Origin: Escherichia coli
Lineage (GTDB): Bacteria > Pseudomonadota > Gammaproteobacteria > Enterobacterales > Enterobacteriaceae
Assembly (NCBI RefSeq): GCF_003019035.1
Contig: NZ_CP027447.1
Direction: 5' to 3' (one strand)
Length of the DNA: 64,000 nucleotides
Positions within the stretch are counted from its first letter, which is position 1. Each line of letters opens with the position of its first letter. Positions 21,441 through 42,282 of this stretch are shown here, piece after piece. The notes beneath the pieces are model-generated. The model did not search any database. It saw only the letters and a list, made by a program, of their open reading frames with translations, and was not told the origin of the DNA. Made by a program: the position numbers and the translations under genes.

Positions 21441-21483
21441 TGATCAGACATGAGATAAATGAAGGGGGATCCGTGAGATAAAT
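21441..21483. repeat. Left prophage end with putative transposase-binding repeats
   Basis: TGAGATAAAT at 21451 and 21474; inverted copy at the right end (57652..57661). Confidence 0.6.
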
Positions 21484-21801
21484 AACGAATTGGAGTGGGT
21501 TAACATGGGTTCTGGTGAACAGAACTGAAATTCTTTTTCGTTATACGATAGATAAGTCGGACATTGAAATCATCCTTTCTGGCAACTTAGAATCGAGTTT
21601 GCTGAAACATGACTCGTAACAAAAAGGATGATTCCAATGACTACTCAAAACAATAAGCATGATAGCCTGGATTACTCAGAAAAGCCCAAAAGCAAGCACA
21701 TCGTGACGTTCGAGCGCGATTCCGGTAGAAAAGGAGAATCGTCTTCCTCTGCCAATAAAAACACTATACCGGCAGCTCCTGCTCCGGGGAAAAAATAAAC
21801 A

Positions 21802-22434
21802 TCATTCATCGTTCGTTGCACGAACGCGCCTGATCTCCACTCTGGCAATCTGATCTGCTGGAATATAGGTTGCCAGAGCTCCCCAGTACTTATCAACCAC
21901 GCCTTTATACTCTTCCCATTCGTTACTGCCTGAAGGGCTGCTGTGTGTGACGTAAAGAACCATATCGCCTTTATTCCCCAGGGTAAACGGACCGTTAGGC
22001 CACTCTTCAAAGTTCCCTGGCAGTCGTGACATCATACCGGAACCATCGCGAAGAATCACTCTGACCTCGGTGACGCTGAAGTCTGTTTGATCAAACATTG
22101 CCTGCCATGCTGAGCTGGTATCGTCAGACCATGAAATATCATTATTCCACAGTAATCTGTACATCCATTTGCGACCGTACCTGCGCCACCACGCACCACA
22201 TGTAACAGCACACAGAAGTGCTGGTGGTGTTGCCAGCCAGGCATTCAGACCTGCCCACATAACAGCCTGGTAAGCCATCATTGCTGTCAGGCCAAAAATT
22301 AGCGAAGAAAAAGTCACCTCAATGGGTTTGTGCTGATCCTTCAGCCCCACATTCGCAATAAAATACCCAATATAGCCACTGGTCAGAGTCACCAGTGTTG
22401 CCCATGGCAAATTTAACAACGAAACGTCAAACAT
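21802..22434 (-). CDS. Hypothetical membrane protein (three predicted TM helices plus ~130 aa soluble domain); terminal moron
   Basis: ORF with GGAG RBS before MFDVSLLNL; lies between the mor terminator and the prophage left end; lower GC than neighbouring phage genes. Confidence 0.55.
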   Translation of the reverse strand: MFDVSLLNLPWATLVTLTSGYIGYFIANVGLKDQHKPIEVTFSSLIFGLTAMMAYQAVMWAGLNAWLATPPALLCAVTCGAWWRRYGRKWMYRLLWNNDISWSDDTSSAWQAMFDQTDFSVTEVRVILRDGSGMMSRLPGNFEEWPNGPFTLGNKGDMVLYVTHSSPSGSNEWEEYKGVVDKYWGALATYIPADQIARVEIRRVRATNDE

Positions 22435-22472
22435 ATTTTCTCCCTGCATCCTGAATACTACAGAGAGAGCAT

Positions 22473-22504
22473 AAAAAAAGCACGGTAAGGGGTCTACCGT
22501 GCTT
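22473..22504 (-). terminator. Rho-independent terminator downstream of mor
   Basis: Stem agcacggta/taccgtgct followed by a U7 run on the minus-strand transcript. Confidence 0.7.
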
Positions 22505-22548
22505 TTATACAATAAGGAGATTTTTGAAAGGACTTTAACAAGCAGGAA

Positions 22549-22947
22549 TTATCTGGATTTGTTAACGTCTCTCGTCTCTTCTGGCAGATCTTCATCAAAC
22601 AACCTGCCCTGCATCCGATCCAGTTCTTCTTTTCTGACCCGCTTAACCACGCTGTAGACCCACTGAAGCGAAACACCAAACTTGCGGGCCAGTTCATGGT
22701 GGTTGCGTCCGTTAAACTCCCGGAAGATTTCCCGGTCGCGCTGACTGACCTTCCATACCATGCCCATCGGGAAATAAACGTTTTGCCCGCCCCAGACCTG
22801 CATCATGCGGTTCGCGACGGCCTGACCAATCTGGTCGGCAATTGCGGGCTCAATATCAATAATCTCGCGAACGGTCTCAGAGGTATGCTGTGCCAGTTCC
22901 ACCAGGAGTTCCGGCCCTTTACTTCGAAACTGATTCAGGTCGCTCAT
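22549..22947 (-). CDS. mor: Mor/C-family middle/late transcription activator
   Basis: IFREFNGRNHHELARKFGVSLQWVYSVVKRVRK closely resembles the conserved Mu Mor C-terminal HTH region. Confidence 0.75.
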   Translation of the reverse strand: MSDLNQFRSKGPELLVELAQHTSETVREIIDIEPAIADQIGQAVANRMMQVWGGQNVYFPMGMVWKVSQRDREIFREFNGRNHHELARKFGVSLQWVYSVVKRVRKEELDRMQGRLFDEDLPEETRDVNKSR

Positions 22948-23371
22948 GTTTTACTCCCGCAGCTCTGCGCTGCCACTTCTTCAGTTTCTCAATAACACTG
23001 CTTGCCTGTTCTGTATTGAGCCAGCGCAGGGCGCTGATGCCCGTTTCCCGCTTGATCCACCGCGCTAATGCATTTTCTGAACGGTCACGAACAATGCCGG
23101 CAGCAGCCATTTCAAGCCATAGCGCACGGATTTTCCTGGACTGCGGATGGTTATCCAGCGGTAAACCGGAGCTGGCTTTTCCGGCAGGCTTAACGCGAAA
23201 GCCTTTCCTTTTCATGGATTCCAGCACGCAGTTTAGTTGTGTGGTATCCATTCCTTTGGTTGAGGCTTTACCGGTCAGCCCCTGTAACATCTGGCGGTAG
23301 GTGTCTTCATCCATACCCAGTTCATTACGGGCAATATGAATGAGCTGGATAAGACGTTGTTTAGTCATCAT
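22919..23371 (-). CDS. GemA-like (Mu gp16 family) protein
   Basis: Position immediately upstream of mor as in Mu; start codon uncertain (track ORF extends to 23410). Confidence 0.5.
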   Translation of the reverse strand: MMTKQRLIQLIHIARNELGMDEDTYRQMLQGLTGKASTKGMDTTQLNCVLESMKRKGFRVKPAGKASSGLPLDNHPQSRKIRALWLEMAAAGIVRDRSENALARWIKRETGISALRWLNTEQASSVIEKLKKWQRRAAGVKHERPESVSK

Positions 23372-23576
23372 CGTTGCTCCTTTTACCTGCGCCACCGATA
23401 TAATCGACATATAAAGGAAGCGCCACAGGCCAGCACAGGAACATCACCGACCAGCTAATCCAGTAGCCGGCACCACTGTAACGTGAATAAAACCCTGAAC
23501 GGCGGTGCAGTTCAGCAGTACACCAACCGACAAAACAATACCAGAACAGGGCACATACAACAGATTCAGCCGTCAT
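23361..23576 (-). CDS. Small hypothetical membrane protein (~71 aa, two hydrophobic segments)
   Basis: MTAESVVCALFWYCFVGW...; GGGGGA RBS; overlaps neighbouring genes in the early operon. Confidence 0.4.
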   Translation of the reverse strand: MTAESVVCALFWYCFVGWCTAELHRRSGFYSRYSGAGYWISWSVMFLCWPVALPLYVDYIGGAGKRSNDDD

Positions 23577-23796
23577 TCTGAATATCCCCCCAACTGATAT
23601 GAATATTACGGGCAGCAATGACAGGGTCGTTATCCCACCATGCACCTGACATGTATTTTTCAACCTGTTCGCGTCCGGCAATAACACCAATTGTGATCCC
23701 CGGCCTGACGTTCTTAAAAAAGGCGCGGGCAAAAAGGTATCTGGCAGATATTCGGCAGGCTTTTAATTTCCGGCTGTTACCTGATAGCGTAATCAT
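23566..23796 (-). CDS. Hypothetical early protein (76 aa)
   Basis: ATGA start/stop overlap with the upstream gene. Confidence 0.35.
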   Translation of the reverse strand: MITLSGNSRKLKACRISARYLFARAFFKNVRPGITIGVIAGREQVEKYMSGAWWDNDPVIAARNIHISWGDIQNDG

Positions 23797-24476
23797 CTGG
23801 CCTCCAGTTTCTGTTGTTCCTGCCCACTGACCGGGCGGTGCAGTCTGACGTTCTGCCCTTCACGAAACCCCGCATAGCGCGAGGCGTCACCATTGCGGCT
23901 TCTTCCCGGTTTACGCGCCCTGGTGGTTTGCGTTTGCGGGTATTTATGTTCCAGCCACTGCTGCATCAGTTCACGTTCGTCATCAGTCAGGGCGAAGGAC
24001 TGTATTTCACTGATAACGGCCAGCACCCAGCCTTCAGCAAACTGGTCTCCACGGCTGGTGCGGGTGGCGGTTTTTATTCTTTTGTTCTGTGTGCTGATAT
24101 ACTGCTGACGCGCCTTTTTCAGCTGGCGGGCCAGCACTTCCCAAGTGTACGCAGCCAGTGCGGCCCGTTCCCGGTTGCCGTAGAATCCCACACCCGGATA
24201 TGTGCCGGGGTGAATGATGGAGTTAACACCAAATGCCTCGCGGATGATGTTCATCAGGCCCAACATATAGCGCGGTGGACGGAGGCTGCCTGTCGGCCAG
24301 TAGTGGCTGATGGTTTCATCAATATCACTCATGGCAATGTCGGAATGTGTGATGCCGTGAACATCCATCAGTTTACGGGCACGGCGCAGTGCCAGAGCGG
24401 CCTCGTGCGGGTTGCCGGATGCAGCCAGCGCCAGCAGTTTTTTCAGTTTCTCAATGTGTTTATCCAGGTCTGTCAT
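23793..24476 (-). CDS. Hypothetical early protein (227 aa)
   Basis: Long ORF in the early operon; no recognisable catalytic motif. Confidence 0.5.
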   Translation of the reverse strand: MTDLDKHIEKLKKLLALAASGNPHEAALALRRARKLMDVHGITHSDIAMSDIDETISHYWPTGSLRPPRYMLGLMNIIREAFGVNSIIHPGTYPGVGFYGNRERAALAAYTWEVLARQLKKARQQYISTQNKRIKTATRTSRGDQFAEGWVLAVISEIQSFALTDDERELMQQWLEHKYPQTQTTRARKPGRSRNGDASRYAGFREGQNVRLHRPVSGQEQQKLEAR

Positions 24477-24778
24477 TGTTCGGTATCTCCGGTGTACATG
24501 ACGCCCAGCCGTGCGGCAAGGCGTTCCAGTTTTTTCTGTTTGTGGAAGTCAATCAGCCGGCCCATCCCCTGAAGACGCAACTGCTCTGTCATGATTTCCA
24601 CGTCTGCCAGCTCTGCCGCGAGGTCACTTTCGCTGCCCTGTCCGTTCAGGTTGCGGGCAGCACTGGCCGCCAGTTCGGCGGCCTCTTCTGTCAGTTTCAG
24701 GGCCTGTGCATCCGGCCCGAAACGCTGCAGAGCCAGACGATAGAGGGCAGTGCGTGTGAGTATGGTGTTCCGTGTCAT
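24473..24778 (-). CDS. Small all-alpha NTP pyrophosphohydrolase-like (MazG-like) protein
   Basis: LTEEAAELAASAARN...LAAELADVEIMTEQL resembles the paired E-rich helices of MazG-type domains. Confidence 0.45.
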   Translation of the reverse strand: MTRNTILTRTALYRLALQRFGPDAQALKLTEEAAELAASAARNLNGQGSESDLAAELADVEIMTEQLRLQGMGRLIDFHKQKKLERLAARLGVMYTGDTEQ

Positions 24779-24787
24779 GCCGCGCCC

Positions 24788-25060
24788 TCAGTGCTTCCGG
24801 TCGACGGTGATGTGCAGGCCGCCTTCTGCAGTGGTTTCCATCCGGTACGGCACCTCATGCTCTGCCGTGTGGGTGAGTGTGTTCACCAGTACCTGCAGGG
24901 CAGCCTCCTTTCCGTTGGTCGTCACAATGGCCTGAGCGGCCATGCTGATTAGCGCTGTCAGGACGTGCTTCACATCGGTGAGGTCGCGGCATTCACACTC
25001 GTTGACATAGTGTTCAACAAGGGTTCGGGTGCGCTGTCGTGCTTCCTGTGGGGTAATCAT
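24788..25060 (-). CDS. Hypothetical early protein (90 aa)
   Basis: ORF in the early operon. Confidence 0.4.
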   Translation of the reverse strand: MITPQEARQRTRTLVEHYVNECECRDLTDVKHVLTALISMAAQAIVTTNGKEAALQVLVNTLTHTAEHEVPYRMETTAEGGLHITVDRKH

Positions 25061-25251
25061 TGCGAGTCCTCCCTGTCAGGGCGGGAGAATTCCATGACGG
25101 GCACGTCCGCTGAAAAATGTTGGCTGCAGTACGGACAGACCAGGGTGACGCGCACTGCAGGTACGTGGTACTTACCGGACATCACGGCGATGGCGCTGTG
25201 AAAACGCAGGGCTGTTATATCCCTCTCGCACTGAATACATTTAAATATCAT
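25057..25251 (-). CDS. Small zinc-ribbon protein (64 aa)
   Basis: Two CxxC pairs (CIQC ... CPYC). Confidence 0.45.
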   Translation of the reverse strand: MIFKCIQCERDITALRFHSAIAVMSGKYHVPAVRVTLVCPYCSQHFSADVPVMEFSRPDREDSQ

Positions 25252-25348
25252 GATTTAATTCTCCTCTGTTTCCGGCGTGCAGAAGCCCACGGCGCTGACG
25301 CCGGAATAAAAAAGAAAATGTTTTTATTAAATAATTAACGTGGTGTGT

Positions 25349-25879
25349 TTACTGCACATCCTGCTCAAAAGGAATTATTGAAAAATCCTCAATATCACTT
25401 TTTATGGTAATACCGGGAATATTTTTCACGGCCTCTTTTTCATTCAGAATGGCATCTTTATTTATTTCCTCTTTTACACGAATAAAGCGCTCAAGCCCCA
25501 GACGTCTCAGTAGTTCAATAACATTATCCGCTCCACGGATACTGACTGATGGCGGACGGTTTCGCCACTGCACCTCGCCGGTGGTGAGGTTAGCGAACTT
25601 CACCTTCCCGTTGCCGGTCAGTTCATCACGGTGTGCCTCACACCATGTCTGAATACCGGACTGCAGTTCGGCCATGCGTTTTTTCAGGCTCTCGGTGAGC
25701 GGGGCATAACGTGCGGTGATATCGCCAATGGCGTCATTCATTTCTGTTTCAGCCCTGACCAGTTCACGTTGTGCGTCACCGAGCAGTCTGATTCCCTCAA
25801 TGACCTCTTCGCGTGTCCCCGGTACCCAGAGTGCCGCTGCGGACTTGATACGTTTTGCCCCTTTTGTACTTTTTGCCAT
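25349..25879 (-). CDS. gam: Gam-like host-nuclease inhibitor (DNA-end binding)
   Basis: 176 aa; AKRIKSAAA, RPPSVSIRG and GITIKSDIEDFSIIPFEQ closely match Mu Gam. Confidence 0.85.
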   Translation of the reverse strand: MAKSTKGAKRIKSAAALWVPGTREEVIEGIRLLGDAQRELVRAETEMNDAIGDITARYAPLTESLKKRMAELQSGIQTWCEAHRDELTGNGKVKFANLTTGEVQWRNRPPSVSIRGADNVIELLRRLGLERFIRVKEEINKDAILNEKEAVKNIPGITIKSDIEDFSIIPFEQDVQ

Positions 25880-25906
25880 ATCTTATGATTTCTCCGGTTG
25901 TGCTGA

Positions 25907-26176
25907 TTACCACAAAGATTCCGGCCACACGACGCGACAGCCGTGCAGTTCGAAAACGCCCTGACGGAAATATCCCCTGTGGTCATGTCCGGTATACAGA
26001 TAACAGGCCTTTCCCTGCTCAAGCATGCGCATGCAATGCGCACTTCGGGAAACGCGGATGACAGGTTTGTTACCCCTGATGGTGATGCTTTGTACATCCG
26101 TGTTCGTCGCCTTAAGCGCCATAATGGCTGACTGCACTTTGCTGATTTGCTGGTTGATACCTGTGGTGGATTTCAT
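25907..26176 (-). CDS. Hypothetical early protein (89 aa) in the position of Mu kil
   Basis: ORF immediately downstream of B. Confidence 0.4.
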   Translation of the reverse strand: MKSTTGINQQISKVQSAIMALKATNTDVQSITIRGNKPVIRVSRSAHCMRMLEQGKACYLYTGHDHRGYFRQGVFELHGCRVVWPESLW

Positions 26177-26178
26177 TA

Positions 26179-27345
26179 TTAAACCCCTTTGACAACGTCA
26201 GCGTTGACCTGTGGAACCCCGATTTCAGCGGCCAGATTCATGGCGGCTATCACCAGGTTACTGACGGCCAGCGGATACAACAGGCTGACCATATTTTTAC
26301 GATGACTTCCCGGATTGCTCAGGCGGGCACGTATGGCATCCACTGCACTGGCGTCCATAATGTCCGTCAGTTGTTTACCTGCCCGTTGCAGTTTGAACGT
26401 CAGAAACTCTTCAAGGTTATTGTCCAGAGGCAGAAGTTCGACCACCTCACAGCGCTGAACGACTTCACGGACTTCCATATTGCGTTCAGACAGTTTTGTC
26501 GCCAGTTCCGGCTGGCCAATCAGCACGATGGACAGCAGTTTTTTGAAACCGGACTCCAGCTCAAAAAAGCGTTTGAGGTGTTTCAGTGTCGGAATGGGCA
26601 GACTGTGGGCCTCCTCAATCACCAGAACGTGGCTGAACCCCGCCTGGCTGCTGTCTTTCAGGACGCGATGCAACTGGCGAAAGCGGGCGTCCTGACTGCG
26701 TCTGATGCTTTCCAGTGGTGCGATGGTACTGATAATGGCTTCGGCAATAGCTGCTGCCTTCAGGGTTTTCCCTTTCACATCGTTGTCTTCCATAGCGATG
26801 ATGTATGGCTCGATAACAATTACCGGCGCATTCTCGCGGTTGATACGTTCAGTCAGGTCGCGGCGCAGCGTGGATTTACCCGCACCGGACTCACCGATGA
26901 CGGCCATAAACCCACCATGACGGGCTGTCTGGTACAACGCCTCACGCACGTAGCGAATGTCCGGGGTGGTGAACACATCATCAGAACCCTGCATGGCTTC
27001 GTCGGCGAACGGGTCACGGAAAAGACCAAACGCTTTTTTGGTTGCTGGAAATAACACCTGTTTTTTGAGTAACATATTCTCTTCCTCACTGAGGCTCGTT
27101 TTATCTGTGGTACCCGCTGTACGGGGCGTGGCCGCGCCCTGTACAGCATCAAAACTCTTCGCTGTATCAATCCCCTGACTTTCCAGCCAGGACGCAAGAC
27201 GCCGGCGCACTTCTCCGGGGCTGGTGCGGGGCCACGCGTTATGATTCACAATCTGGGCCAGCGTGGCCTCAGAAACATCGACAGCTCTCGCCACCACCGC
27301 CTGTGGAATACGGGCCTCTTTCAGTTGCTGCTTCAGTACCAGCAT
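26179..27345 (-). CDS. Transposition ATPase (Mu B-like AAA+ protein)
   Basis: Walker A GESGAGKST; N-terminal HTH-like region; GAGGAGG RBS; immediately downstream of the transposase. Confidence 0.8.
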   Translation of the reverse strand: MLVLKQQLKEARIPQAVVARAVDVSEATLAQIVNHNAWPRTSPGEVRRRLASWLESQGIDTAKSFDAVQGAATPRTAGTTDKTSLSEEENMLLKKQVLFPATKKAFGLFRDPFADEAMQGSDDVFTTPDIRYVREALYQTARHGGFMAVIGESGAGKSTLRRDLTERINRENAPVIVIEPYIIAMEDNDVKGKTLKAAAIAEAIISTIAPLESIRRSQDARFRQLHRVLKDSSQAGFSHVLVIEEAHSLPIPTLKHLKRFFELESGFKKLLSIVLIGQPELATKLSERNMEVREVVQRCEVVELLPLDNNLEEFLTFKLQRAGKQLTDIMDASAVDAIRARLSNPGSHRKNMVSLLYPLAVSNLVIAAMNLAAEIGVPQVNADVVKGV

Positions 27346-27355
27346 GTTTCCCTCC

Positions 27356-29125
27356 TCAGTTGCCGTTAACAATGCTGATAACGCTGCTGCGGGCCGGCGT
27401 GGTCAGCGTGGCCATGACTTCATCCAGTGCGGCTTCCGGTACGCCGTCCGGGTACTGTGCCGTTAACTGGCGGTAATGTTCCGGCGTCCAGGTAAGGCCG
27501 TCGGCGCTGAACTTATCGCGCAGGGCTTTCGCGGCCTCCACATGAGTCATGGGACGTTGTTCAGTGCGCGGTCTGCGTACATCAGAGGCCTGACCGCGCT
27601 TCGGTATACAGGCCGGAAGTGTGGCGTCATCAATATGTTTATACGGGTCAAGCCGCCCGCCGAACGGCAGCGCCTTCGCCTTGCGTGCGGCAGCTGCATC
27701 TGCGGCGTTGTCTGTACCGGTGACCAGCGCTTCGGTTTCTTTTGCCGCCGTCTGTGCCGGTGTTTCCGGCAGGGCTTTGTAACTTTCGCCAAATACCGCC
27801 GCGCCTTCAGCAAAGCCAAACTCGTTCTTTCTGACCTCTTCGACCAGGAAGAACGTCTCGTGGCCGTCCTCACCGGTCAGAACCACCTGTGCCACATCGC
27901 TGCGCCATGGGTTACGGGTAATCATCAGTTTTTCACCAACCAGTACGCCCGGTACCGTTGATACGTCAAATTCAGTGCCCCGGAACGAGACACGAAGTTT
28001 TGGCGTGACTTTGCGGAGTTCTGGTGTCGTCACAGCCAGTTCACGGCATACCTCAACGGAAGGCGCTTTTTTCAGCTGCTCAGCAGTAATCTTCAGCCAG
28101 ATATCCGTGCGGGTTTTACCGTGGCGGCTGTGAACAGCTGTTGCGTTAAAGTGGCTACGCCATTTCGCGGCCAGCGCGTTGAGTTCTTCCAGACTGTGAA
28201 CCGGCCGGAACTTCAGACCCGGCTCCAGCTTGCGTTCGATAATGTCACGCGCCTTTTCCACCTGTCCGGTGGCGCGGGCGTTATGCGGCTTGTGCGCTAT
28301 CAGGTCGATGCCCAGTGAGCGGCACATGTTTTTCGTCATACCCGCGGTGTTTGCCGAGCCGGGGTCGAGATAGAGTATTTTCGGCACGCCGTGCAGCACG
28401 TCTGCGCCGCCACGCTCCTGCATGGCGTTGATAAGCACAGAACACAGGTTCTCACCGGATTCCGCACCCGTCACATACTCAACGTAAATCCAGCCGCTGG
28501 CATGGTCGGTAATCTCGTAACTCCACACGCGGTCACTGGCGATACGGGCAAGGTTAGCGGGCTTGTTCTTGTAGAACTTCGCGCTGTCCATCACCTGCAG
28601 CCCTTTGTGTCCATTGCTCAGGTAGTAAAGCGTGCAGAGAGAGGCATCAATCTGCCAGACATGATTGGGATGCAGACTGGCCACTTCGGTATGCGGCGCA
28701 GGGGCATCCAGTTGTTCCGGGTGCAGGCCATAGTTACGCAGGGCACGGCTGATAGCATCTTCGGACAACGGGAAAAACTCACCGGTGGTTTCATCTGTTC
28801 TGCCTGCGGAGATAAAGCCGTTAGCCCGCAGGGTTTCCACTGCATCTGCGATGGAATAGAGACGCTTACCGTTCTTGCGGGTGGCCTCACGTAGTGTGGC
28901 AGATATCAGCGCGGCTTCGTCGCGGGTCAGGGCGCTGCGCCCGGCATCGGCGCGTTTTTTGCGTTTATCAGTCACAGAGACCTCCTTCAGCCTGCGCAGC
29001 AGAGTGGCGCGGGACATGCCAAGTTCAGCACAGGCGGCGTCATATATTGCACCACGTTTACCATGCCCCGCGTCACGTGCCGCGCGGGCGACATAAACCA
29101 GTCGTTCAGTCAGGGCAGCATTCAT
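27356..29125 (-). CDS. DDE transposase (Mu A-like)
   Basis: 589 aa; N-terminal HTH-like region, integrase-core motifs (HVWQIDAS, YLDPGSANT). Confidence 0.8.
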   Translation of the reverse strand: MNAALTERLVYVARAARDAGHGKRGAIYDAACAELGMSRATLLRRLKEVSVTDKRKKRADAGRSALTRDEAALISATLREATRKNGKRLYSIADAVETLRANGFISAGRTDETTGEFFPLSEDAISRALRNYGLHPEQLDAPAPHTEVASLHPNHVWQIDASLCTLYYLSNGHKGLQVMDSAKFYKNKPANLARIASDRVWSYEITDHASGWIYVEYVTGAESGENLCSVLINAMQERGGADVLHGVPKILYLDPGSANTAGMTKNMCRSLGIDLIAHKPHNARATGQVEKARDIIERKLEPGLKFRPVHSLEELNALAAKWRSHFNATAVHSRHGKTRTDIWLKITAEQLKKAPSVEVCRELAVTTPELRKVTPKLRVSFRGTEFDVSTVPGVLVGEKLMITRNPWRSDVAQVVLTGEDGHETFFLVEEVRKNEFGFAEGAAVFGESYKALPETPAQTAAKETEALVTGTDNAADAAAARKAKALPFGGRLDPYKHIDDATLPACIPKRGQASDVRRPRTEQRPMTHVEAAKALRDKFSADGLTWTPEHYRQLTAQYPDGVPEAALDEVMATLTTPARSSVISIVNGN

Positions 29126-29128
29126 TGG

Positions 29129-30043
29129 TTATGCCTCCAGCCCGTTAATCTGTGGCGTCGGCTCAGTCAGCCATGAAGGCGCGACATCGCCTGTTGGCTC
29201 GTCCGGCAGGTCAAATGTGGAGCGCAGGCTACGCGCTGTGCTTTCCAGTTGACAGACCAGGCCTGCCATGAAGTCTCTGGGGGTATCAATCATGTTTTCA
29301 GCACAATATGCGCACAGCGTCTCAAAAGCGCTGGACAGTCGAACGGCGATAGCAGATTCCGCCTCAACCGCTAATGCTGTCACTTCCGCCCGCAGCTTCT
29401 TAACCTCTTCATCAGGCTCAGGCGGCTGAATACGGGATTTCTTCTCCAGTTTTGTGGAAAGCGAGTCGATTTTTTCGTTTTTGTCGGCCAGCACGCGCTG
29501 TTGTGCTGCGTTGGTTTCGCGGGCTTCGCGCAGGGCCTGACGCAATTCACGTACTGACATGCGATCAACGTCGTCAAGCGTCAGGCCGGCAACTGTGCCG
29601 CCGTCGGCCAATTCATCAAGTTCTTCATTATCCAGAACCATCAGGTCGTACAGTTTGGCTTTCCCCAAAACGCTCAACGTTGAGCGTTTTGTTGGCTCAT
29701 CACCTTCTCCCAAAAACTTCATACTGGCTTGCATCATGCGGCGAGCAACTTGTGGTGCAAGTCCGAGTTCATTTTCTAAAATGTTTGTAAAATCACCGTG
29801 TGGCTCATTTTCTTTTAAGATGATCAGCCGTTTACCCGCTTCCAGCATAGATTCAGCACTCTGCGCCATATAAAAACGTGCTTCGTGAACAATGCGATCA
29901 CGTTCATAAGGCAGTCCATCACCAAACTGCTGCATAATTTCCATGCGATGCTGTGTCATAGCGTTCAAATTGACATTGATGTTATCTGACAGCGGAACCT
30001 CAACATTCAGTTCAGTGTTAACGGGTGATTTGGTGCGTCCCAT
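29129..30043 (-). CDS. Hypothetical conserved early protein (304 aa, coiled-coil C-terminal half)
   Basis: ORF between the Ner-like genes and the transposase. Confidence 0.5.
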   Translation of the reverse strand: MGRTKSPVNTELNVEVPLSDNINVNLNAMTQHRMEIMQQFGDGLPYERDRIVHEARFYMAQSAESMLEAGKRLIILKENEPHGDFTNILENELGLAPQVARRMMQASMKFLGEGDEPTKRSTLSVLGKAKLYDLMVLDNEELDELADGGTVAGLTLDDVDRMSVRELRQALREARETNAAQQRVLADKNEKIDSLSTKLEKKSRIQPPEPDEEVKKLRAEVTALAVEAESAIAVRLSSAFETLCAYCAENMIDTPRDFMAGLVCQLESTARSLRSTFDLPDEPTGDVAPSWLTEPTPQINGLEA

Positions 30044-30053
30044 TGATTACTCC

Positions 30054-30425
30054 TTACAAACGACTACCTGAAATAACTCGTTGGTTGATTTCGTTAATAC
30101 GATCCTGTGCACGCGCCATCTCGTGACTGTGAGCCATGGCGATCTGTAGTAACTGGATTCCCGGTGCGAAACGTCCGTTCTCTAATTTCATGGCCAGTCC
30201 CTCTTCAATAAGGGTATTAAGTGCTCGATTGATATTCGCCGGGGACTCCCCCAGGGCTGATGCCAGTTCACCGTTAGAAACACCGTTCAGAGCATGACCG
30301 CGTAGAGCTTTGAGTACACGTAGGATGCGGCTCCCGGAACTGGAAATATTTACTTTACTCATGTCACATTTCCATTTTTGCAATATGTGATAACCTGTTG
30401 CATATGTGGAAAATTTATGCCGCAT
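30054..30425 (-). CDS. Putative winged-helix DNA-binding protein
   Basis: SRILRVLKALRGHALNGVSNGELASALGESPANINRALNTLIEEGL resembles MarR/IclR-type wHTH; start uncertain (alternative Met at 30362). Confidence 0.45.
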   Translation of the reverse strand: MRHKFSTYATGYHILQKWKCDMSKVNISSSGSRILRVLKALRGHALNGVSNGELASALGESPANINRALNTLIEEGLAMKLENGRFAPGIQLLQIAMAHSHEMARAQDRINEINQRVISGSRL

Positions 30426-30603
30426 TTGACGTGGGTTTTAATCCCAGTTTTACGGCAATTTCATGGGCTTTGCCGTAACGAGCTTTGGTCTGTCCATTGA
30501 GAACACGATAGACCTCATTGCGGCTGTAGCCGTGTTCTTCGGCCCAGCGGGTAAACGTGATACCACGCTGACGGAAGAGATTTTTAACTTGTTCGGAAGT
30601 CAT
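30415..30603 (-). CDS. Small HTH DNA-binding protein in the Ner position (first gene of the early operon)
   Basis: 62 aa with AGGAG RBS; divergent from the repressor gene. Confidence 0.55.
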   Translation of the reverse strand: MTSEQVKNLFRQRGITFTRWAEEHGYSRNEVYRVLNGQTKARYGKAHEIAVKLGLKPTSNAA

Positions 30604-30689
30604 TGTTGTCTCCTTTGTTGATGCAATGATGTTTGTTTTATATGTGATAGATTATGTGAACTATTGTTCTCATTGTCAATGAGGTTTAT
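30604..30689. promoter_or_regulatory. Divergent early/repressor promoter-operator region
   Basis: 86 bp AT-rich spacer between divergent starts; three direct copies of TATGTGA (30641, 30653, 30687). Confidence 0.55.
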
Positions 30690-31115
30690 GTGAATTTTGA
30701 TTCTCTTTGCGCGTCGCGGTTCAAAGCTGAGCGTTCGCGGTTATCACTCAAGCAGGCTGAAGTAGCAGCCCTTTGTGGCGTTTCAAGAGAAATGTGGGGG
30801 AAATATGAACGAGGGGTTGCTGTTCCCGGAGGTGAGTTACTTGCAGCCTTTGCAAGAATTGGGGCCAATGTACAGTTCATTCTTACCGGGGAGTCATCAG
30901 GTATAACTTTATCACGTGATGAAATGGAGTTACTGCAGCACTACCGGCAAGCACCGTTACAGGTCAAAGGTTCAGTTTTGTCGGCTTTGACTACTGGCTC
31001 CTCCAGAGAACGGGCGGAACAGGTTATTCATGGAGATGTTCTGGGGAATGTTATCAAAGGTAACGTAACCATAGGAACAGGTGGAATAATGAACAAAAAT
31101 ACCAAGAGAAGATGA
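30690..31115 (+). CDS. Prophage repressor (XRE-family HTH)
   Basis: GTG start with GAGG RBS; HTH LSLKQAEVAALCGVSREMWGKYERG; divergent from the transposition operon. Confidence 0.75.
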   Translation: MNFDSLCASRFKAERSRLSLKQAEVAALCGVSREMWGKYERGVAVPGGELLAAFARIGANVQFILTGESSGITLSRDEMELLQHYRQAPLQVKGSVLSALTTGSSRERAEQVIHGDVLGNVIKGNVTIGTGGIMNKNTKRR

Positions 31116-32098
31116 GTAAAGAGAAGCAAACAGTTAACGGGGATGTGGGTAACGTTGTCAGCGGTGATGTTACCATTCATAACTATTCTGCTGACATACT
31201 TCCTTCTGCCCAGCAACCAATTTCGTTGCTGCAAAAACGCGATTTACACAGATTGATGGATGAATTGGTTGATCTGGGGGAAAGTAAGCGCGAGCTATGG
31301 ATGACGATCCACACGAAACTTAATACCAAAACAGTTAATGAAATGACTGCGGCTGATTATCATGGTGCGGTTGAGATCCTTCAGAGATATGCACAACAGA
31401 TCCAGAATATGAAGGACTGTAATCTTCTGGTCAGCAAAATAATGGCGCTTACTGACCCTGGGTATCGTCTTGACCGTGACAGATACTGTCTGAAGCATTT
31501 CGGTACAACCCATCTTAAAGGCCTGGACAAAGAGCAGTTGCAGGCTGTGTTTGGTTATTTTGATGATCTGCTGAATATTCGTGATGAGAGTAAAACTCTA
31601 TCACCTCCATCGGAAAGCGGTGCAAAATCAGTCGCAACTGTACCAACCAGAAGCCGGAAGCCTCATGTAGTAGTGTTGGGGGGAGCGTTAGTTCTTGTAG
31701 CAATATTTTTCGTGGGAATGATTGTGTTCGCTGGTAAATGGGGAAATGCTAAAGCAGTAGCTTCTACTGAAACCAGCGTTTTTAACATTAAAACCAACGA
31801 CAAAATAATAGAAGATTCCATCCCCGCACTGCGCAGCATGTTTCCAGGATTAAATAAGTACTCAGATGATTTCCATTCGGTTTCAAGCTACAAGCAAAAA
31901 ACGGGCTGGCATACCCTTAAATTTACTGTATCAGCAAAGGCATCCGTCCCCGAAAATTATAGTGTTAAGGGCAAGGTTTGTTACATTAACATAAACCCTG
32001 ATGGTAGTTATGCTCGGGTTTTGACTGCTCCATGTCGTTCACTGCTACTTGATCAGCAAAGCACTCCTGACAGTAAGTACCGTTTTATTCTTAAATAG
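31112..32098 (+). CDS. Hypothetical single-pass membrane protein (moron), translationally coupled to the repressor
   Basis: ATGA overlap with the repressor stop; markedly AT-rich; one TM segment (VVVLGGALVLVAIFFVGMIVFAG) between N- and C-terminal domains. Confidence 0.6.
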   Translation: MSKEKQTVNGDVGNVVSGDVTIHNYSADILPSAQQPISLLQKRDLHRLMDELVDLGESKRELWMTIHTKLNTKTVNEMTAADYHGAVEILQRYAQQIQNMKDCNLLVSKIMALTDPGYRLDRDRYCLKHFGTTHLKGLDKEQLQAVFGYFDDLLNIRDESKTLSPPSESGAKSVATVPTRSRKPHVVVLGGALVLVAIFFVGMIVFAGKWGNAKAVASTETSVFNIKTNDKIIEDSIPALRSMFPGLNKYSDDFHSVSSYKQKTGWHTLKFTVSAKASVPENYSVKGKVCYININPDGSYARVLTAPCRSLLLDQQSTPDSKYRFILK

Positions 32099-32410
32099 AA
32101 AATAACAGCTGAATTACCATGGGAGCAGAAAAAAGACAAAGGCGATATCATGCTGCGTTCTAAAATTTTAATGTAAAAGGTGATGAACATGGCAGGGATT
32201 CAGGTTATCGCAGGAAGTTTTCCTAAAGGGTGGGCAAGCATGGGGTTCGGTACCATCGTGTTTGCCACCAATCCATGGAACGATGGGTAATGTCTGCATT
32301 TTCATAATCTGTAAGCCTTTTACAATTATTAAAAATATGGCAGGCTAGTCTGGTCTCGCGAGACTGACTGAACCTCGGTCGGCTCACAGTGCATTCCTGT
32401 GGGACGATGG

Positions 32411-32447
32411 CCAGCCCGGCTTTCGGGTGCCGGGCTGGTCGTTCTTT
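32411..32447 (+). terminator. Putative rho-independent terminator
   Basis: Perfect 10 bp stem ccagcccggc/gccgggctgg with 8 nt loop, followed by tcgttctttc. Confidence 0.5.
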
Positions 32448-32494
32448 CATGATGCGGCAGGGATAGTGGGATTTCTGTTAATGTGGTTTAGGGA

Positions 32495-32710
32495 TTATCC
32501 GGGGTGATTGTCTGCCTTTATCTGGTCCAGGGCATAAGTGATCCCTTCAGCAAAAACAGAAGTATCGAACTGCTTTTGTATTTCCTGAAAATGAACAGTG
32601 GCACGACAGATACTCAGTTCTCCGCGATGTAACCGGATAATATCTTCCAGAACATTGTTCACTGCTTCGGCACGGCGCTGATGTTCTGTTAACGTTAATC
32701 GGGGATTCAT
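32495..32710 (-). CDS. Hypothetical small protein (71 aa)
   Basis: Strong AGGAG RBS 7 nt before ATG. Confidence 0.5.
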   Translation of the reverse strand: MNPRLTLTEHQRRAEAVNNVLEDIIRLHRGELSICRATVHFQEIQKQFDTSVFAEGITYALDQIKADNHPG

Positions 32711-33113
32711 GATGCACTCCTTAAATGATGATTTTTATGTACTCACCGGCAAAATATTCTGCCGATTACTGAACACGCATCCGGCACCTCAGGTTTTGAT
32801 TTATTCTGGTTTTTTCGATATCCCGGACCAGGTTGATCACGACCAGAAAAAGTGCCGGTATTTTATTGATACGCTGATATGGCTTCGGGATAACAGCTAT
32901 ATTCGTTACTCTCAGTTGCTGGCTGTGGGAGCGGCTGATGTCGTCCTCACGGAAAAAACGCTCTGTCTGCTCAATGCCATGCCGACCTTTCTGCAGCCCC
33001 GGCCCGTACCATTTAAAGAGTTGCTTCTGGATGCAGTAAAAACCGGCGAAAATGCAGTCATCGCTGAATGCGTATCCCGGATTATGCGTTACGTGTTTAA
33101 TGAACGTAAGTGA
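32709..33113 (+). CDS. Hypothetical protein (134 aa), uncertain
   Basis: Only long ORF in the 380 bp gap; weak RBS; start overlaps the divergent 71 aa gene and 3' end overlaps the convergent NTPase gene. Confidence 0.3.
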   Translation: MMHSLNDDFYVLTGKIFCRLLNTHPAPQVLIYSGFFDIPDQVDHDQKKCRYFIDTLIWLRDNSYIRYSQLLAVGAADVVLTEKTLCLLNAMPTFLQPRPVPFKELLLDAVKTGENAVIAECVSRIMRYVFNERK

Positions 33114-33832
33114 GGTTTATCTGCTGTCTGCATAATCCCGATAGCCAGTGCGAGGGGAAGTAATTCCGGGGAAACTCTTTCAAACAGCGATGCCCATTCT
33201 CCTCTCGCCATCACTCTGTCCAGCCCGCCCCCCAGCTGCATTTCAGCAATCTTCCTGATTTCCCGGAACAACGCCGCTTTGATCTCTTCATGCTCAGCTT
33301 TATTTTCCGGTGTCAGAATGTATTCGTCGAAGAACCGGGGAGGCTGGTTAACGGGGATTGTGTTTACCGGGATGTGTTCCTGTTTCCCGTACTTCGGGGA
33401 CGAACAACATTCTGTTGGCTGACCGGTGAGTTTACGTAACTCCTTCATGAGCAGCTCCTGATCGTAAACTGTCATCAGTGCCGCAATGGTGGCATGCAGT
33501 GCATCGGGCAGTATCCAGGGTTGCCGGCCCGTGGGGCATATAACATCCAGTAGCTCATTCGTCCGACAGATACGCTCCTCTCCGTATGACAACAGGCCCT
33601 GTCCCGTGTATTCCTCCAGCCTGATCACTGTGCCAGCCCGTGGCTTCTGCCAGGTCGTCAGATCATCGCCACTCATACGGCGCTCATTCTCCACGTCAGC
33701 AGCATCGACAATGACGCTGTTTCCGAGTTCCTGTTTCACCACTTCCTCTATCCGCGCCAGTACGTAACTTTTACCGCTGCCCACAGGACCGGACACGGTG
33801 ACAGTGATGACCGGATTCAGTGTATGTGTCAT
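33089..33832 (-). CDS. P-loop NTPase/kinase-like protein (247 aa)
   Basis: N-terminal Walker A VSGPVGSGKSY and probable Walker B VIVDAAD; strong AGGAG RBS. Confidence 0.55.
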   Translation of the reverse strand: MTHTLNPVITVTVSGPVGSGKSYVLARIEEVVKQELGNSVIVDAADVENERRMSGDDLTTWQKPRAGTVIRLEEYTGQGLLSYGEERICRTNELLDVICPTGRQPWILPDALHATIAALMTVYDQELLMKELRKLTGQPTECCSSPKYGKQEHIPVNTIPVNQPPRFFDEYILTPENKAEHEEIKAALFREIRKIAEMQLGGGLDRVMARGEWASLFERVSPELLPLALAIGIMQTADKPHLRSLNT

Positions 33833-33962
33833 GTTGCATTCTCCTCTGTGAATAATTCATCGTTTATCCTGCACATCCCGTATCCCCGGCTCTCTTAACG
33901 CGCTTTAAAATCCTTCGCGCCCTGTATTTGTGATGCTGTCTCCACCAGACAAGGAGACACAC

Positions 33963-34313
33963 ATGAAAAACCTGAAAAAATTCATTCCCCCTGTTAAAAA
34001 ACCTCGCCTCAGCGGCTGGCTGCTGACCTCAGTGCTGTTGCTGGGCACCATCGCTCTGGTCTCGCCACAGCAGCTGCCTGTTGTGATCTACAAGCTGGCA
34101 CTCATCACGCTGGCAGCAGTGCTGGGTTACTGGCTTGACCGTTCACTCTTCCCCAAAGCCCGTCCCGGTCAGTACCTGAAACATGAAGACAGGCTGATGG
34201 CTGAAGGGCGTTTCCCTGTGCAGACCGGCCTTCACCTTGTATTTTCTGCTGCGTTAATCCGCCGTGCACTGATTGTTGCAGCGGTCTGTCTGGCTGTGGC
34301 AACAGGACTGTGA
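33963..34313 (+). CDS. Putative holin-like membrane protein
   Basis: AAGGAGA RBS; hydrophobic segments; immediately upstream of the endolysin. Confidence 0.4.
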   Translation: MKNLKKFIPPVKKPRLSGWLLTSVLLLGTIALVSPQQLPVVIYKLALITLAAVLGYWLDRSLFPKARPGQYLKHEDRLMAEGRFPVQTGLHLVFSAALIRRALIVAAVCLAVATGL

Positions 34314-35038
34314 CCATGAACTGGCCTCAAATCACCCTCATTATTCTGTTCGCCTTTGGTCTGGGCGTAACCGCCATCAGACACGGAGAACCACGTAACG
34401 ATAAATACAGCTTCTGGTGGCAGCTTGCTGGCAACCTGGTGATTGTCTGGCTGCTCTGGTGTGGCGGCTTCTTCAGTCAGGCCCGCGCAGCGCAGCCTCC
34501 GCAGGCTGCGCTGCAGTATCGCGATGATGTGATCCGTAATGCCCGGCTTGAATGGGGACTGTCTGCGCCGGTGGCCGATTTCGCTGCGCAACTGCATCAG
34601 GAAAGCGGCTGGCGACCTGATGCGGTCTCGCCGGCTGGCGCTCAGGGACTGGCGCAGTTCATGCCCGCCACTGCTGACTGGATAAGTCAGCTGATGCCGG
34701 GGCTTAACAGCCGTGAGCCGTTTAATCCGGCATGGGCCATCCGGGCGCTGGTCAGCTATGACCGCTGGCTGTGGCAGCGCGTCAGCGCCGCCAGTGACTG
34801 CGAACGTATGGCCATGACACTGTCGGGCTATAACGGTGGTCTGGGCTGGGTACAACGGGACAGGCAGCTAGCATCACAGAAAGGCCTGGACAGTACCCGC
34901 TGGTTCGGGCATGTCGCCACGGTGAATGCCGGACGCAATGCTGCCAGCTGGCGGGAGAACCGCCATTATCCGCAGCGCATCCTGCACGAACTGGCCCCCC
35001 GTTATCTGACATGGGGGGGCGGCAGCTGTGTGGACTAA
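34310..35038 (+). CDS. Endolysin, soluble lytic transglycosylase (SLT) family
   Basis: SLT motif ESGWRPDAVSPAGAQGLAQFMPATA. Confidence 0.75.
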   Translation: MTMNWPQITLIILFAFGLGVTAIRHGEPRNDKYSFWWQLAGNLVIVWLLWCGGFFSQARAAQPPQAALQYRDDVIRNARLEWGLSAPVADFAAQLHQESGWRPDAVSPAGAQGLAQFMPATADWISQLMPGLNSREPFNPAWAIRALVSYDRWLWQRVSAASDCERMAMTLSGYNGGLGWVQRDRQLASQKGLDSTRWFGHVATVNAGRNAASWRENRHYPQRILHELAPRYLTWGGGSCVD

Positions 35039-35681
35039 CCTGCTAAAAAATCTGCCGTGGCGCAGTCTGCTGCTGGCTGTGCTCATAAATGCTTTTCTGA
35101 TTGGACTTTATTACCTGGGCTACAAAAGCGGGCATGAAAACGCCACGCGCGACGGCGATAAGGCGATCAGTGAGTTGCAGTCAGCATTCGACACATACAA
35201 AACGGAGCAGGCAATGCTTGAGAACGCTGCGTTGCGAGCATGGGCAAAACGGTATCAGGAGCAGGTGGCCGCCGGGCAGCGGGCTGAAGCCGGTTATCTT
35301 GAGCAGATTGCTCAACTGGAGAGCCGGAACAAACAACTACAGGGGCAAATTAACGATGTCACACAGCGCTGGATTGATGAAAAAGGTAAGAGCCATCCCA
35401 TTGAGTGCGTGTTTACTCGCGGTTTCGTGCGCCAGTACAACGCCGCACTCGGGTATGACAACGCATCCGTCGACACCGGTCATTCAGACGCAACTGCCGC
35501 CGCTGGCACCGGCACTGGCGCAGCGACCGGGCAACCTGAAACCGCTGACGCCCGGTTACGCAATTCGGGTGTCTCCCAGCGTGACGTCCTCGCCAACATC
35601 ATCGACAACGCAGGGCAATGTCGTCGCTGGCGAAACCAGATAAACGCGCTGCTGGATGAACGGGAAGGATTACAGAAATGA
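35028..35681 (+). CDS. Putative i-spanin (Rz-like)
   Basis: GTG start; N-terminal TM anchor then coiled-coil; follows the endolysin. Confidence 0.5.
   Translation: MWTNLLKNLPWRSLLLAVLINAFLIGLYYLGYKSGHENATRDGDKAISELQSAFDTYKTEQAMLENAALRAWAKRYQEQVAAGQRAEAGYLEQIAQLESRNKQLQGQINDVTQRWIDEKGKSHPIECVFTRGFVRQYNAALGYDNASVDTGHSDATAAAGTGTGAATGQPETADARLRNSGVSQRDVLANIIDNAGQCRRWRNQINALLDEREGLQK
35377..35643 (+). CDS. Putative o-spanin (Rz1-like lipoprotein) embedded in the i-spanin gene
   Basis: Alternate frame inside 35028..35681; lipoprotein signal MKKVRAIPLSACLLAVSC and proline-rich mature part. Confidence 0.5.
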   Translation: MKKVRAIPLSACLLAVSCASTTPHSGMTTHPSTPVIQTQLPPLAPALAQRPGNLKPLTPGYAIRVSPSVTSSPTSSTTQGNVVAGETR

Positions 35682-36004
35682 CACTGCAGGTTGAATTCTG
35701 GACGGTGGTGAGTTTTCTGCTCACCTTCATGGGGTTTGTTGGAGGGCTCGCCAAATGGTTGTTCAGTAAAACAGAAGAACGCCAGGCGGCACGATTCGCC
35801 TCCCTTGAACAGGCCCTGCAACAGTCCGCCTCCAACTGGGGCGAGCTGGAAAAGGAATTTATGCGATTTAAAGCGGATTTACCGCTGAATTATGTCCGTC
35901 GCGAGGATTATATCCGTGGCCAGACAGTCATCGAGGCCAAACTGGACGCACTTTACAACAAACTGGAAGTGGTACAGCAGTACCGCAATACCGGAGGTCA
36001 ATAA
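35678..36004 (+). CDS. Hypothetical membrane protein (N-terminal TM, coiled-coil)
   Basis: ORF overlapping the spanin stop. Confidence 0.45.
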   Translation: MTLQVEFWTVVSFLLTFMGFVGGLAKWLFSKTEERQAARFASLEQALQQSASNWGELEKEFMRFKADLPLNYVRREDYIRGQTVIEAKLDALYNKLEVVQQYRNTGGQ

Positions 36005-36315
36005 TGGTCGATATTACCCGGGTACGCCGCGAATCCCTGCGCTGGAGTCTGCTGGTTGCCCTGAACAAAACCCGCCCTTACACCGCCAGCGAAACGTTGC
36101 TGCTGGACGTGTCCCGTGCCATCTACCCGGACACCACGCAACTGGAGCTGCGCCGGGAGCTTGATTATCTGGCAGATCGCAAAATGGTGGAGCTGGAGAA
36201 GAGACCGTCCGGTGACTGGTTTGCCGATCTGAGTCGCCTTGGTGTGGATATTGTGGAATACACCGTGGAATGCGGCCCGGGTATTGCCCGCCCGGAAAAA
36301 TACTGGAGTGAGTGA
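36004..36315 (+). CDS. Hypothetical protein (103 aa)
   Basis: ORF in operon context upstream of the packaging genes. Confidence 0.45.
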   Translation: MVDITRVRRESLRWSLLVALNKTRPYTASETLLLDVSRAIYPDTTQLELRRELDYLADRKMVELEKRPSGDWFADLSRLGVDIVEYTVECGPGIARPEKYWSE

Positions 36316-40477: not shown

Positions 40478-40479
40478 CA

Positions 40480-40938: not shown

Positions 40939-40980
40939 GTTTTCTCTCTTCAGGCGGGTGATTTATCATTGCCAGCGAAT

Positions 40981-41026
40981 GAGGGGCTGTATTACCTTTA
41001 TAAAGGCTTTACAGCCTCTGTTTTAT
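40981..41026 (+). terminator. Putative terminator between head-assembly and capsid operons
   Basis: Stem ggggctgta/tacagcctc followed by gttttat. Confidence 0.45.
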
Positions 41027-41152
41027 AACCGCTTCCGGTTCACCGCATTGCTTTCCCTGTCCTTCTCCCCTGATGTTTTCTAAAGCAGATTAAAATCGCC
41101 GGGCCTGCATTTCTCACAAACTGTCTCCGACAACATAACGCGGGACAGCAAA

Positions 41153-42268: not shown

Positions 42269-42282
42269 TTTAAGGAGAAATC

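Follow-up and report, generated by a model that had tools for sequence, protein, structure and literature searches.

A BcepMu-like early operon, inverted relative to that of phage Mu, in an Escherichia coli prophage

Phage phiE255 is a member of the BcepMu family of transposable myoviruses, in which Summer et al. reportedly also included enterobacterial prophages in 2004. According to one account (PMC3091646, citing Summer 2004), an inversion of the left end is common to this family; BcepMu-like prophages are known in E. coli (PMC11610265, PMC10955171), and TG...CA termini as well as an rve transposase core occur in relatives of BcepMu (PMC2628397). The inverted early layout has been described since 2004, and observing it in the prophage treated here is correct but ordinary. 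The same inverted early block, a related transposition module, a DUF3102 gene and the lysis cassette are also found in Pseudomonas phage B3 (Beetrevirus), and the layout is thus not exclusive to BcepMu. In Mu, the early block faces the other way with respect to both the ends and the late genes. The window analysed here is a stretch of 64,000 nucleotides of an E. coli chromosome; very probably, it contains an intact-looking transposable prophage of the BcepMu family (21441-57694), whose early operon is the region 22476-30679.

Limits and insertion site of the prophage

The prophage and its left-hand terminal region comprise the following features:

21441..57694: whole BcepMu-like transposable prophage, 36,254 bp, with 5'-TG...CA-3' ends
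21441..21483, plus strand: left end with two candidate transposase-binding repeats, ATGAGATAAAT (21450-21460) and GTGAGATAAAT (21473-21483)
21802..22512, minus strand: extra cargo ORF between mor and the left end (phrog_12870, E 3e-132)

Homology to the prophage of an ST131 strain begins exactly at 21441, host homology restarts at 57695, and the empty site of strain SCU-301 aligns over both prophage junctions. The element lies between ascB and hycI, where it disrupts a gene, with the 6-bp target-site duplication ATTCCT on either side (21435-21440 and 57695-57700). The prophage of ST131 strain 2822, a second insertion, shares these ends and is bordered by the 6-bp duplication CGTAGC, so that TG...CA termini and a 6-bp duplication were seen at two independent insertions. 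The target duplication of Mu is 5 bp. Taken by itself, the junction in the window leaves the choice between 5 and 6 bp open only for a phage end of ...CAA, and a Mu-like 5-bp duplication was ruled out by the ST131 insertion. The candidate repeats of the left end are in the same register as those at the left end of BcepMu, and at the right end CGCGATAAAC and GTGAGATAAAT (57652-57662, minus strand) are spaced from the tip just as the left-end repeats are from theirs. The right end of the ST131 copy differs from that in the window (76% identity over the last 294 nt). Mu also has TG...CA ends, and the tips of the right ends agree in 16 of the first 20 nt by count.

Gene content and control signals of the early operon

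The ORF layout, family assignments and tblastn searches delineated fifteen tightly packed minus-strand genes, transcribed leftward. Candidate signals give the operon an extent of 22476-30679, from promoter to hairpin terminator. From the control region to the left end, its features and the divergent repressor gene are:

30690..31115, plus strand: Cro/C1-type repressor, read divergently from the early operon; GTG start preceded at 6 nt by a GAGG ribosome-binding site
30651..30679, minus strand: candidate early promoter, -35 TTGACA, 17-nt spacer, -10 CATAAT
30415..30603, minus strand: small HTH protein in the Ner/Cro position, first early gene, 45% identity to BcepMu gp16
30054..30362, minus strand: HTH transcriptional regulator, homologue of BcepMu gp12
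29129..30043, minus strand: DUF3102 protein, homologue of BcepMu gp10
27356..29125, minus strand: DDE (rve) transposase, 67% identity to BcepMu gp09, phrog_310
26179..27345, minus strand: ExeA-like AAA+ transposition ATPase, 58% identity to BcepMu gp08
25907..26176, minus strand: small early gene, phrog_2041
25349..25879, minus strand: Gam host-nuclease inhibitor, 63% identity to Mu Gam, phrog_491
25057-25251 and 24788-25060, minus strand: small early genes (PHROG matches, ST131 annotation)
24473-24778, minus strand: MazG-like NTP pyrophosphohydrolase (PHROG match, ST131 annotation)
23793-24476, minus strand: DUF2786 gene (PHROG match, ST131 annotation)
23566-23796 and 23361-23576, minus strand: small early genes (PHROG matches, ST131 annotation)
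22919..23368, minus strand: GemA (Mu gp16 family), 44% identity to BcepMu gp02 and 36% to Mu GemA, phrog_286
22549..22947, minus strand: Mor/C-family late transcription activator, phrog_532
22476..22506, minus strand: hairpin resembling a terminator, with a 13-bp stem and a T run after it, immediately downstream of mor

The repressor gene and the early operon are separated by a divergent control region of 86 bp (30604-30689). The candidate promoter is strong and sigma-70-like, its 11 of 12 matching positions being the best pattern match within 21300-34000, and three TATGTGA repeats found by pattern matching at 30641, 30653 and 30687 are candidate operators. The repressor has 39% identity to BcepMu gp17 and a sub-threshold similarity to RstR/DicA-type HTH proteins. 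A start at 30654, as in the ST131 annotation, was rejected because this frame meets a stop codon at once in the window, and the GTG at 30690 with its GAGG site was therefore taken as the start. At the other end, the hairpin at 22506-22476, about 1 kb from the left end, probably marks the end of the operon, judging from its predicted structure and position.

The first early protein belongs to the 'BcepMu_gp16 family' TIGR04111 (94.4 bits against a cut-off of 34) and matched Pfam HTH_31 (4e-5), whereas its Pfam match to HTH_35 (Ner) was not significant (E 0.046). In the transposase, rve was the only Pfam match, besides a sub-threshold similarity to IS481/IS21; the ATPase matched AAA_22 (9.6e-20) and phrog_296, 'DNA transposition protein'. 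By their predicted families, these two proteins are functional analogues of MuA and MuB, respectively, without detectable homology to them. Mor is 56% identical to BcepMu gp01, 31% to Mu Mor and 35% to Mu C, and tblastn detected no second Mor/C homologue in the prophage.

An initial annotation of this DNA, given for 22549-31115, had the early genes run on the minus strand from 30603 to the left terminus. The strand and the starting point hold, but 22549 is the stop codon of mor, not the phage terminus, and the true end lies at 21441. The labels A, B and Ner used there denote functional analogues; the homology to Mu that they imply is not detectable. Annotation should label the prophage as BcepMu-type, not Mu-type, and the behaviour of Mu A, B, Ner and c should not be assumed for its transposase, ATPase, Ner-position protein and repressor.

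Relationship to BcepMu, Mu and B3

In tblastn searches, 36 of the 49 proteins of BcepMu (NC_005882) matched the window, all collinear and on the same strand with identities of 24-77%, and this collinearity runs from Mor near the left end to the tail fibre protein H at the right. On the nucleotide level, 13 blastn HSPs, again all collinear, gave a coverage of 25.8% at 67.7% identity. As in BcepMu, a minus-strand early block extends from beside the repressor to the left end, GemA and Mor being its final genes, and the repressor and the late genes face rightward. Also common to both are an rve-core DDE transposase (Tn552-like, not MuA-like) with an ExeA-like ATPase; a DUF3102 protein; a gp16-family HTH protein encoded by the first early gene, divergent from a Cro/C1-type repressor; a late region in BcepMu order with a holin/SLT endolysin/Rz lysis cassette, Mu-like head genes, and a contractile P2-like tail with baseplate; TG...CA termini with a short target duplication and two end repeats in equal register; and conserved motifs at four late intergenic gaps. 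The inverted early region, the transposase type with its ATPase, the first early gene, the order of the late region and the termini are all traits of the BcepMu family. The prophage differs from BcepMu by lacking gp03-07 (SSB, HU, DUF3164), gp11, gp13-15, gp18-20 and the gp53 acyltransferase, and by having a Mu-like Gam (without counterpart in BcepMu according to tblastn with the BcepMu proteins), the DUF2786 gene, the extra left-end ORF, other cargo after the repressor, a divergent TerL (24% identity), and a Gin invertase with an invertible tail-fibre segment. The ICTV genus criterion is about 70% nucleotide identity across the genome length. Nucleotide similarity to BcepMu or phiE255 as high over the whole genome as in a strict genus Bcepmuvirus was not found, and genus-level membership by nucleotide identity is doubtful because the similarity to BcepMu spans only about 26% of the prophage.

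The closest deposited phage is Escherichia phage PhiKM (PQ738613), which aligns with 76% of the prophage at 94% nucleotide identity. NCBI places PhiKM in unclassified Bcepmuvirus. PhiKM and the E. coli relatives have an early-operon order and a left end identical to those of the prophage, and the same layout was found in about 640 of 5,426 complete E. coli genomes (approximately 12%), including ST131 strain 2822 and ABU 83972, with copies at up to three places per genome. The early/late junctions were kept in 11 of 12 records drawn at even intervals from the ranked list of 644 complete genomes, and none of the sampled E. coli records had the early block in Mu orientation.

Mu shares with the prophage Gam (63%), GemA (36%) and Mor/C (31-35%), all of which tblastn placed on the inverted strand, whereas the Mu terminase, portal, F, G and gin match in direct orientation. 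Its four blastn HSPs, with 3% coverage, show the same division: that of gam is inverted and three late or right-end HSPs are direct. Set against Mu, everything from the repressor through mor lies in reverse between the left end and the late genes, an old, family-wide arrangement and no local rearrangement. Of the features characteristic of Muvirus, homologues of MuA, MuB, Ner and c were not detectable, since Mu A, B, ner and c had no tblastn match in the prophage (all E > 0.2), and the early operon does not point from the left end toward the late genes. Neither megablast nor blastn against the phage collection yielded a nucleotide match of Mu or D108 to the early region. The prophage also differs from Mu in its 6-bp target duplication, its P2-like tail, its SLT transglycosylase endolysin and its single Mor/C activator, of which Mu has two; a Gin invertase (75% identity) with an invertible fibre segment is present in both. 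These comparisons bear out the initial annotation in regarding the early region as inverted relative to canonical Mu and its architecture as that of the BcepMu group, not of Mu/D108: the proposed synteny comparison revealed no collinear Mu/D108 identity.

The reading as a basically Mu-like (Mu/D108) prophage whose early block was inverted recently, or is inverted only through an artefact of assembly, has nothing in its favour beyond an orientation that is unusual relative to Mu, and can be regarded as practically negligible. Apart from the unmatched Mu A, B, ner and c and the small extent of Mu nucleotide similarity, it is contradicted by the occurrence of the same junctions in PhiKM, the sampled genomes, BcepMu and B3, and by the lack of inverted repeats around the early block; the sole invertible segment is that of the tail fibre at 55.4-57.0 kb. 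A layout present in PhiKM and so many E. coli genomes is explained neither by an error of assembly nor by an inversion of recent date. An element of B3 type (Beetrevirus-like) has more to commend it, since the annotation of B3 lists Mor, GemA, ATPase, transposase, DUF3102 and HTH genes on the minus strand, followed on the plus strand by repressor, holin, SLT endolysin and terminase, and the nucleotide similarity is approximately 68% across the transposase, ATPase and DUF3102 genes. Outside the transposition genes, however, similarity to B3 is much lower, and BcepMu collinearity spans the entire late region. The prophage encodes a contractile P2-like tail, with sheath and tube 77% and 67% identical to BcepMu gp39 and gp40, respectively, and its baseplate V/W/J/I genes match BcepMu, whereas phages of the B3 group have long flexible tails (PMC4378225). 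PhiKM, too, is filed in Bcepmuvirus, and a B3-type affiliation is very improbable.

A further reading takes the prophage for a defective remnant, in which the early operon would be a functionless fossil of gene order. PHASTER-type calls for similar E. coli regions are indeed sometimes 'questionable' (PMC10955171). This reading is nevertheless unlikely: the early and late ORFs are all intact and of full length compared with BcepMu, both ends are present with a clean target duplication, and a 94%-identical genome has been deposited under a phage name (PhiKM). Moreover, the insertions of the window and of ST131 are independent and at different sites, which, together with the up to three places per genome, indicates recent mobility.

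Late region, proposed cascade and variable modules

The remaining part of the prophage, to the right of the repressor gene, contains:

31112..33832: variable cargo block of low GC (~0.44) between the repressor and lysis genes
33895..33911, plus strand: candidate Mor-dependent late promoter motif, TTAACGCGCTTTAAAAT
33963..55845, plus strand: lysis, head, tail and baseplate genes, collinear with BcepMu gp21-gp52
55358..57616: invertible tail-fibre segment and invertase, with 212-nt inverted repeats at 55358-55569 and 56772-56983
57044-57616: Gin-like invertase, 75% identity to Mu Gin, phrog_125

The late genes on the plus strand include those of holin, SLT endolysin, spanin, terminase and portal (tblastn, PHROG). 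The initial annotation had assigned the repressor and all late genes to this strand, which is right for the repressor and the lysis and virion genes but too broad with 'all': a few non-structural cargo ORFs within this part (32495-32710, 33089-33832) and the alternative tail-fibre genes of the invertible segment (55852-56972) are on the minus strand.

Further copies of the candidate late promoter motif start at 41081, 46997 and 52812. All four copies of T[TA]AA-N5-6-TTAA[AT]AT are in late intergenic gaps, and related motifs occur at the orthologous gaps of BcepMu; no match was found in the first 16 kb of B3 that were scanned. Because the motif was built from the same four sites on which it is counted, its enrichment is circular, and its conservation in BcepMu is the sole independent support.

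Loss of repression would be expected to give rise to the early transcript and hence to transposase and ATPase, which might then act on the TG...CA ends, each with its paired GAGATAAAT-type repeats. The predicted outcome at the ends is replicative transposition with 6-bp target duplications. Gam would shield DNA ends. Mor, encoded by the last gene of the operon, could work in trans on the four rightward late promoters; if it acts on them directly, the cascade would have two tiers (early to late), unlike the early-Mor-C-late cascade of Mu. We tentatively propose, as a possibility rather than a probability, that such a two-tier cascade, with a single Mor/C activator on four late promoters whose motif is conserved from E. 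coli to Burkholderia, characterizes an enterobacterial BcepMu branch, and that this lineage is a chimera with acquired Mu-type gam and gin/invertible-fibre modules.

The cargo was also screened for a defence function, but PADLOC returned nothing for the left-end ORF, the post-repressor cargo, and the DUF2786 and DUF3102 genes. The left-end ORF, which had no NCBIfam match either, is 633 bp long in the annotation of relatives, is listed as 'hypothetical protein' in ST131 and is absent from BcepMu. The E. coli relatives differ from the prophage in TerL allele, insertion site and cargo, with a DNA adenine methylase or other genes at the position of the post-repressor block; by inserting at varied sites, the family adds to strain-level variation in E. 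coli.

Limits of the prophage and organization of its early region

The prophage encompasses 36,254 bp (21441–57694) of the E. coli chromosome, with ascB in its left and hycI-hycE in its right flank. By inserting between ascB and hycI, it disrupted a hypothetical gene. The left limit is the exact start of homology to the prophage of E. coli ST131 strain 2822, and host homology restarts at 57695. Alignment of both junctions to the uninterrupted site in E. coli SCU-301 placed TG and CA at the tips and revealed a duplicated ATTCCT on the flanks (21435–21440 and 57695–57700). An independent insertion in ST131 strain 2822, whose left end is identical and whose right tip is identical over the last ~20 nt, is flanked by a duplicated CGTAGC (L002 ~2936–2941 and L006 ~4988–4993, both segments from that strain). 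These two duplications around common ends thus establish a target duplication of 6 bp, in contrast to the 5 bp of Mu. Two GAGATAAAT-like repeats are present at each prophage end, with offsets from the tip that are equal for both ends, and the repeats at the BcepMu ends are in the same register. The right-end tip TGATGCGCCGCGCGATAAAC (57675–57694, reverse complement) equals that of Mu, TGAAGCGGCGCACGAAAAAC (last 20 nt of the Mu sequence L005), at 16 of 20 positions (manual count) despite transposases without detectable homology; this likeness may reflect convergence or common ancestry of the ends.

Fifteen closely packed minus-strand genes were found within 22549–31115, in line with the initial annotation, which had assigned the early genes (22549–30603) to this strand; both the ORF layout and family searches bear this out. 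It had also taken 22549 as the left terminus, but this position is the mor stop codon, the real left end being 21441.

Features of the early region and left end
30690–31115, plus: repressor (GTG start behind GAGG)
30415–30603, minus: small HTH protein (NCBIfam TIGR04111 "BcepMu gp16 family", 94 bits with the cut-off at 34)
30054–30362, minus: HTH regulator (tblastn with BcepMu proteins, family search)
29129–30043, minus: DUF3102 protein (family search, ST131 annotation)
27356–29125, minus: DDE transposase (rve as sole significant Pfam domain)
26179–27345, minus: AAA_22/ExeA-like ATPase (family search)
23361–26176, minus: seven small genes, one right and six left of gam, including DUF2786 and a MazG-like pyrophosphohydrolase (family searches)
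25349–25879, minus: Gam (family search)
22919–23368, minus: GemA (tblastn, family search)
22549–22947, minus: Mor-family activator (tblastn, family search)
22506–22476: terminator-like hairpin with a 13-bp stem, between mor and the left end
21802–22512, minus: extra ORF between mor and the left end (phrog_12870)

The best sigma-70-like promoter match in 21300–34000 (TTGACA, 17 nt, CATAAT; 30679–30651, minus strand; 11 of 12 positions matching) sits in the 86-bp gap separating the two regulator genes and is surrounded by three TATGTGA repeats, which are candidate operators. The extra ORF has no counterpart in BcepMu and no match to defence systems or NCBIfam; located behind the strong terminator-like hairpin, it is possibly a moron with expression of its own.

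Relationship to BcepMu and Mu and spread of the layout

Proteins translated from the BcepMu and Mu annotations were compared with the window by tblastn. At E < 1e-3, 36 of the 49 BcepMu proteins matched with both order and strand kept, from gp01 (Mor, 56% identity) beside the left end to the tail fibre gp52; among them are the ATPase (58%), transposase (67%), gp16 (45%), repressor gp17 (39%), portal (59%), and sheath (77%), as well as the holin and SLT endolysin. From Mu, 12 of 53 proteins matched: Gam (63%), GemA, Mor, and C on the opposite strand, and TerL, portal, F, G, a baseplate protein, fibre fragments, and Gin (75%) on the same strand, whereas the best E-value for Mu A, B, Ner, and c against the window was 0.29. 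On the nucleotide level, BcepMu yielded 13 HSPs, all collinear (coverage 25.8%, identity 67.7%), and Mu four (coverage 3%), with the gam HSP alone inverted. Every BcepMu family-level feature tested was present, and nucleotide identity fell below the strict value used for the BcepMu genus. This synteny comparison, a check that the initial annotation had proposed, supports its assignment of a BcepMu-like rather than Mu-like architecture.

The initial annotation had named an assembly artefact or a recent inversion of the early block as an alternative. This is ruled out by several observations. Escherichia phage PhiKM, which is classified under Bcepmuvirus, shows 94% identity and keeps collinearity over the early/late junction. 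Among 5,426 complete E. coli genomes, 643 matched a query reaching from the left end past the repressor, and in 225 of these the match covered 80% or more of the query; a transposase-to-portal query matched 644 genomes, and 11 of 12 records taken at even intervals through this ranking contained it at full length on one strand. Inverted repeats bracketing the early block were searched for and not found. Finally, Pseudomonas phage B3, which belongs to a different genus from BcepMu, likewise has its early block inverted, with Mor at the left end and a divergent repressor at the other (L007 124–10400). Since B3 shares the arrangement, the inverted layout predates the BcepMu group and is not specific to it.

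A passage in PMC3091646, citing Summer et al., describes the left-end inversion as common to the BcepMu family, and TG...CA termini and an rve core occur in BcepMu-related elements (PMC2628397). Earlier studies describe BcepMu-like prophages from E. coli (PMC10955171; with an invertible region, PMC11610265) and Salmonella (PMC7302871). The inverted early block was accurately observed and well interpreted at the outset, but its architecture was already known, and the prophage is one that is common in E. coli and has been deposited before. Modest additions are the 6-bp duplication, the left-end terminator and extra ORF, the mosaic of Mu-type gam and gin, the divergent TerL, and a four-site late motif.

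Predicted regulatory cascade and late motif

Loss of the repressor would permit a leftward transcript of ~8.2 kb ending at the hairpin after mor. The transposase and ATPase would then work on the repeat-bearing TG...CA ends, Gam would protect DNA ends, and Mor, the single Mor/C homologue of the prophage, would switch on the rightward late genes in trans. This last step is supported by a motif, T[TA]AA-N5-6-TTAA[AT]AT, of which a pattern scan of the 64-kb window found four copies, one in each of the four intergenic gaps within the late region and none elsewhere; the gaps precede the holin, the protease/scaffold gene, the tail chaperone, and baseplate W.

Copies of the late motif
33895–33911, plus
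41081–41096, plus
46997–47013, plus
52812–52828, plus

Shuffling gave an expectation of 0.1 against the four copies found, a value that is biased since the pattern was derived from those same four sites. Closely related elements at the orthologous gaps of BcepMu (L004 11486, 18813, ~24530, and 30773) are independent support for the motif, whose copies are candidate activator-dependent late promoters.

Late region, cargo and exchanged modules

The initial annotation had placed the repressor and all late genes on the plus strand. This holds for the repressor and for every lysis, head, tail, and baseplate gene (33963–55845), but the minus strand of this part also encodes a few cargo ORFs as well as the alternative fibre genes that belong to an invertible segment. 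The variable cargo block between repressor and holin (31112–33832) has a low GC content (~0.44 vs. 0.55–0.58 elsewhere) and encodes a 328-aa protein with a Flk-like N-terminus (sub-threshold) and proteins of phrog_4490, phrog_2266, and phrog_3787; PADLOC gave no match in it, and relatives carry a Dam methylase at this position. At the right end (55358–57616), a Gin-like invertase sharing 75% identity with Mu Gin adjoins the invertible segment, which comprises a tail-fibre C-terminus and an assembly protein and has an inverted repeat of 212 nt at either border (the two copies 93% complementary), whereas BcepMu has an acyltransferase there.

TerL (36863–38179, plus) is 24% identical to its BcepMu counterpart, and the otherwise 94% identical PhiKM has a TerL without nucleotide match to it, although the flanking TerS and portal are conserved, which suggests an allele swap of the large terminase. 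Gam (25349–25879, minus), where BcepMu proteins have no match, shares 63% identity with Mu Gam, as if Mu-type and BcepMu-type phages had exchanged this module in enterobacteria.
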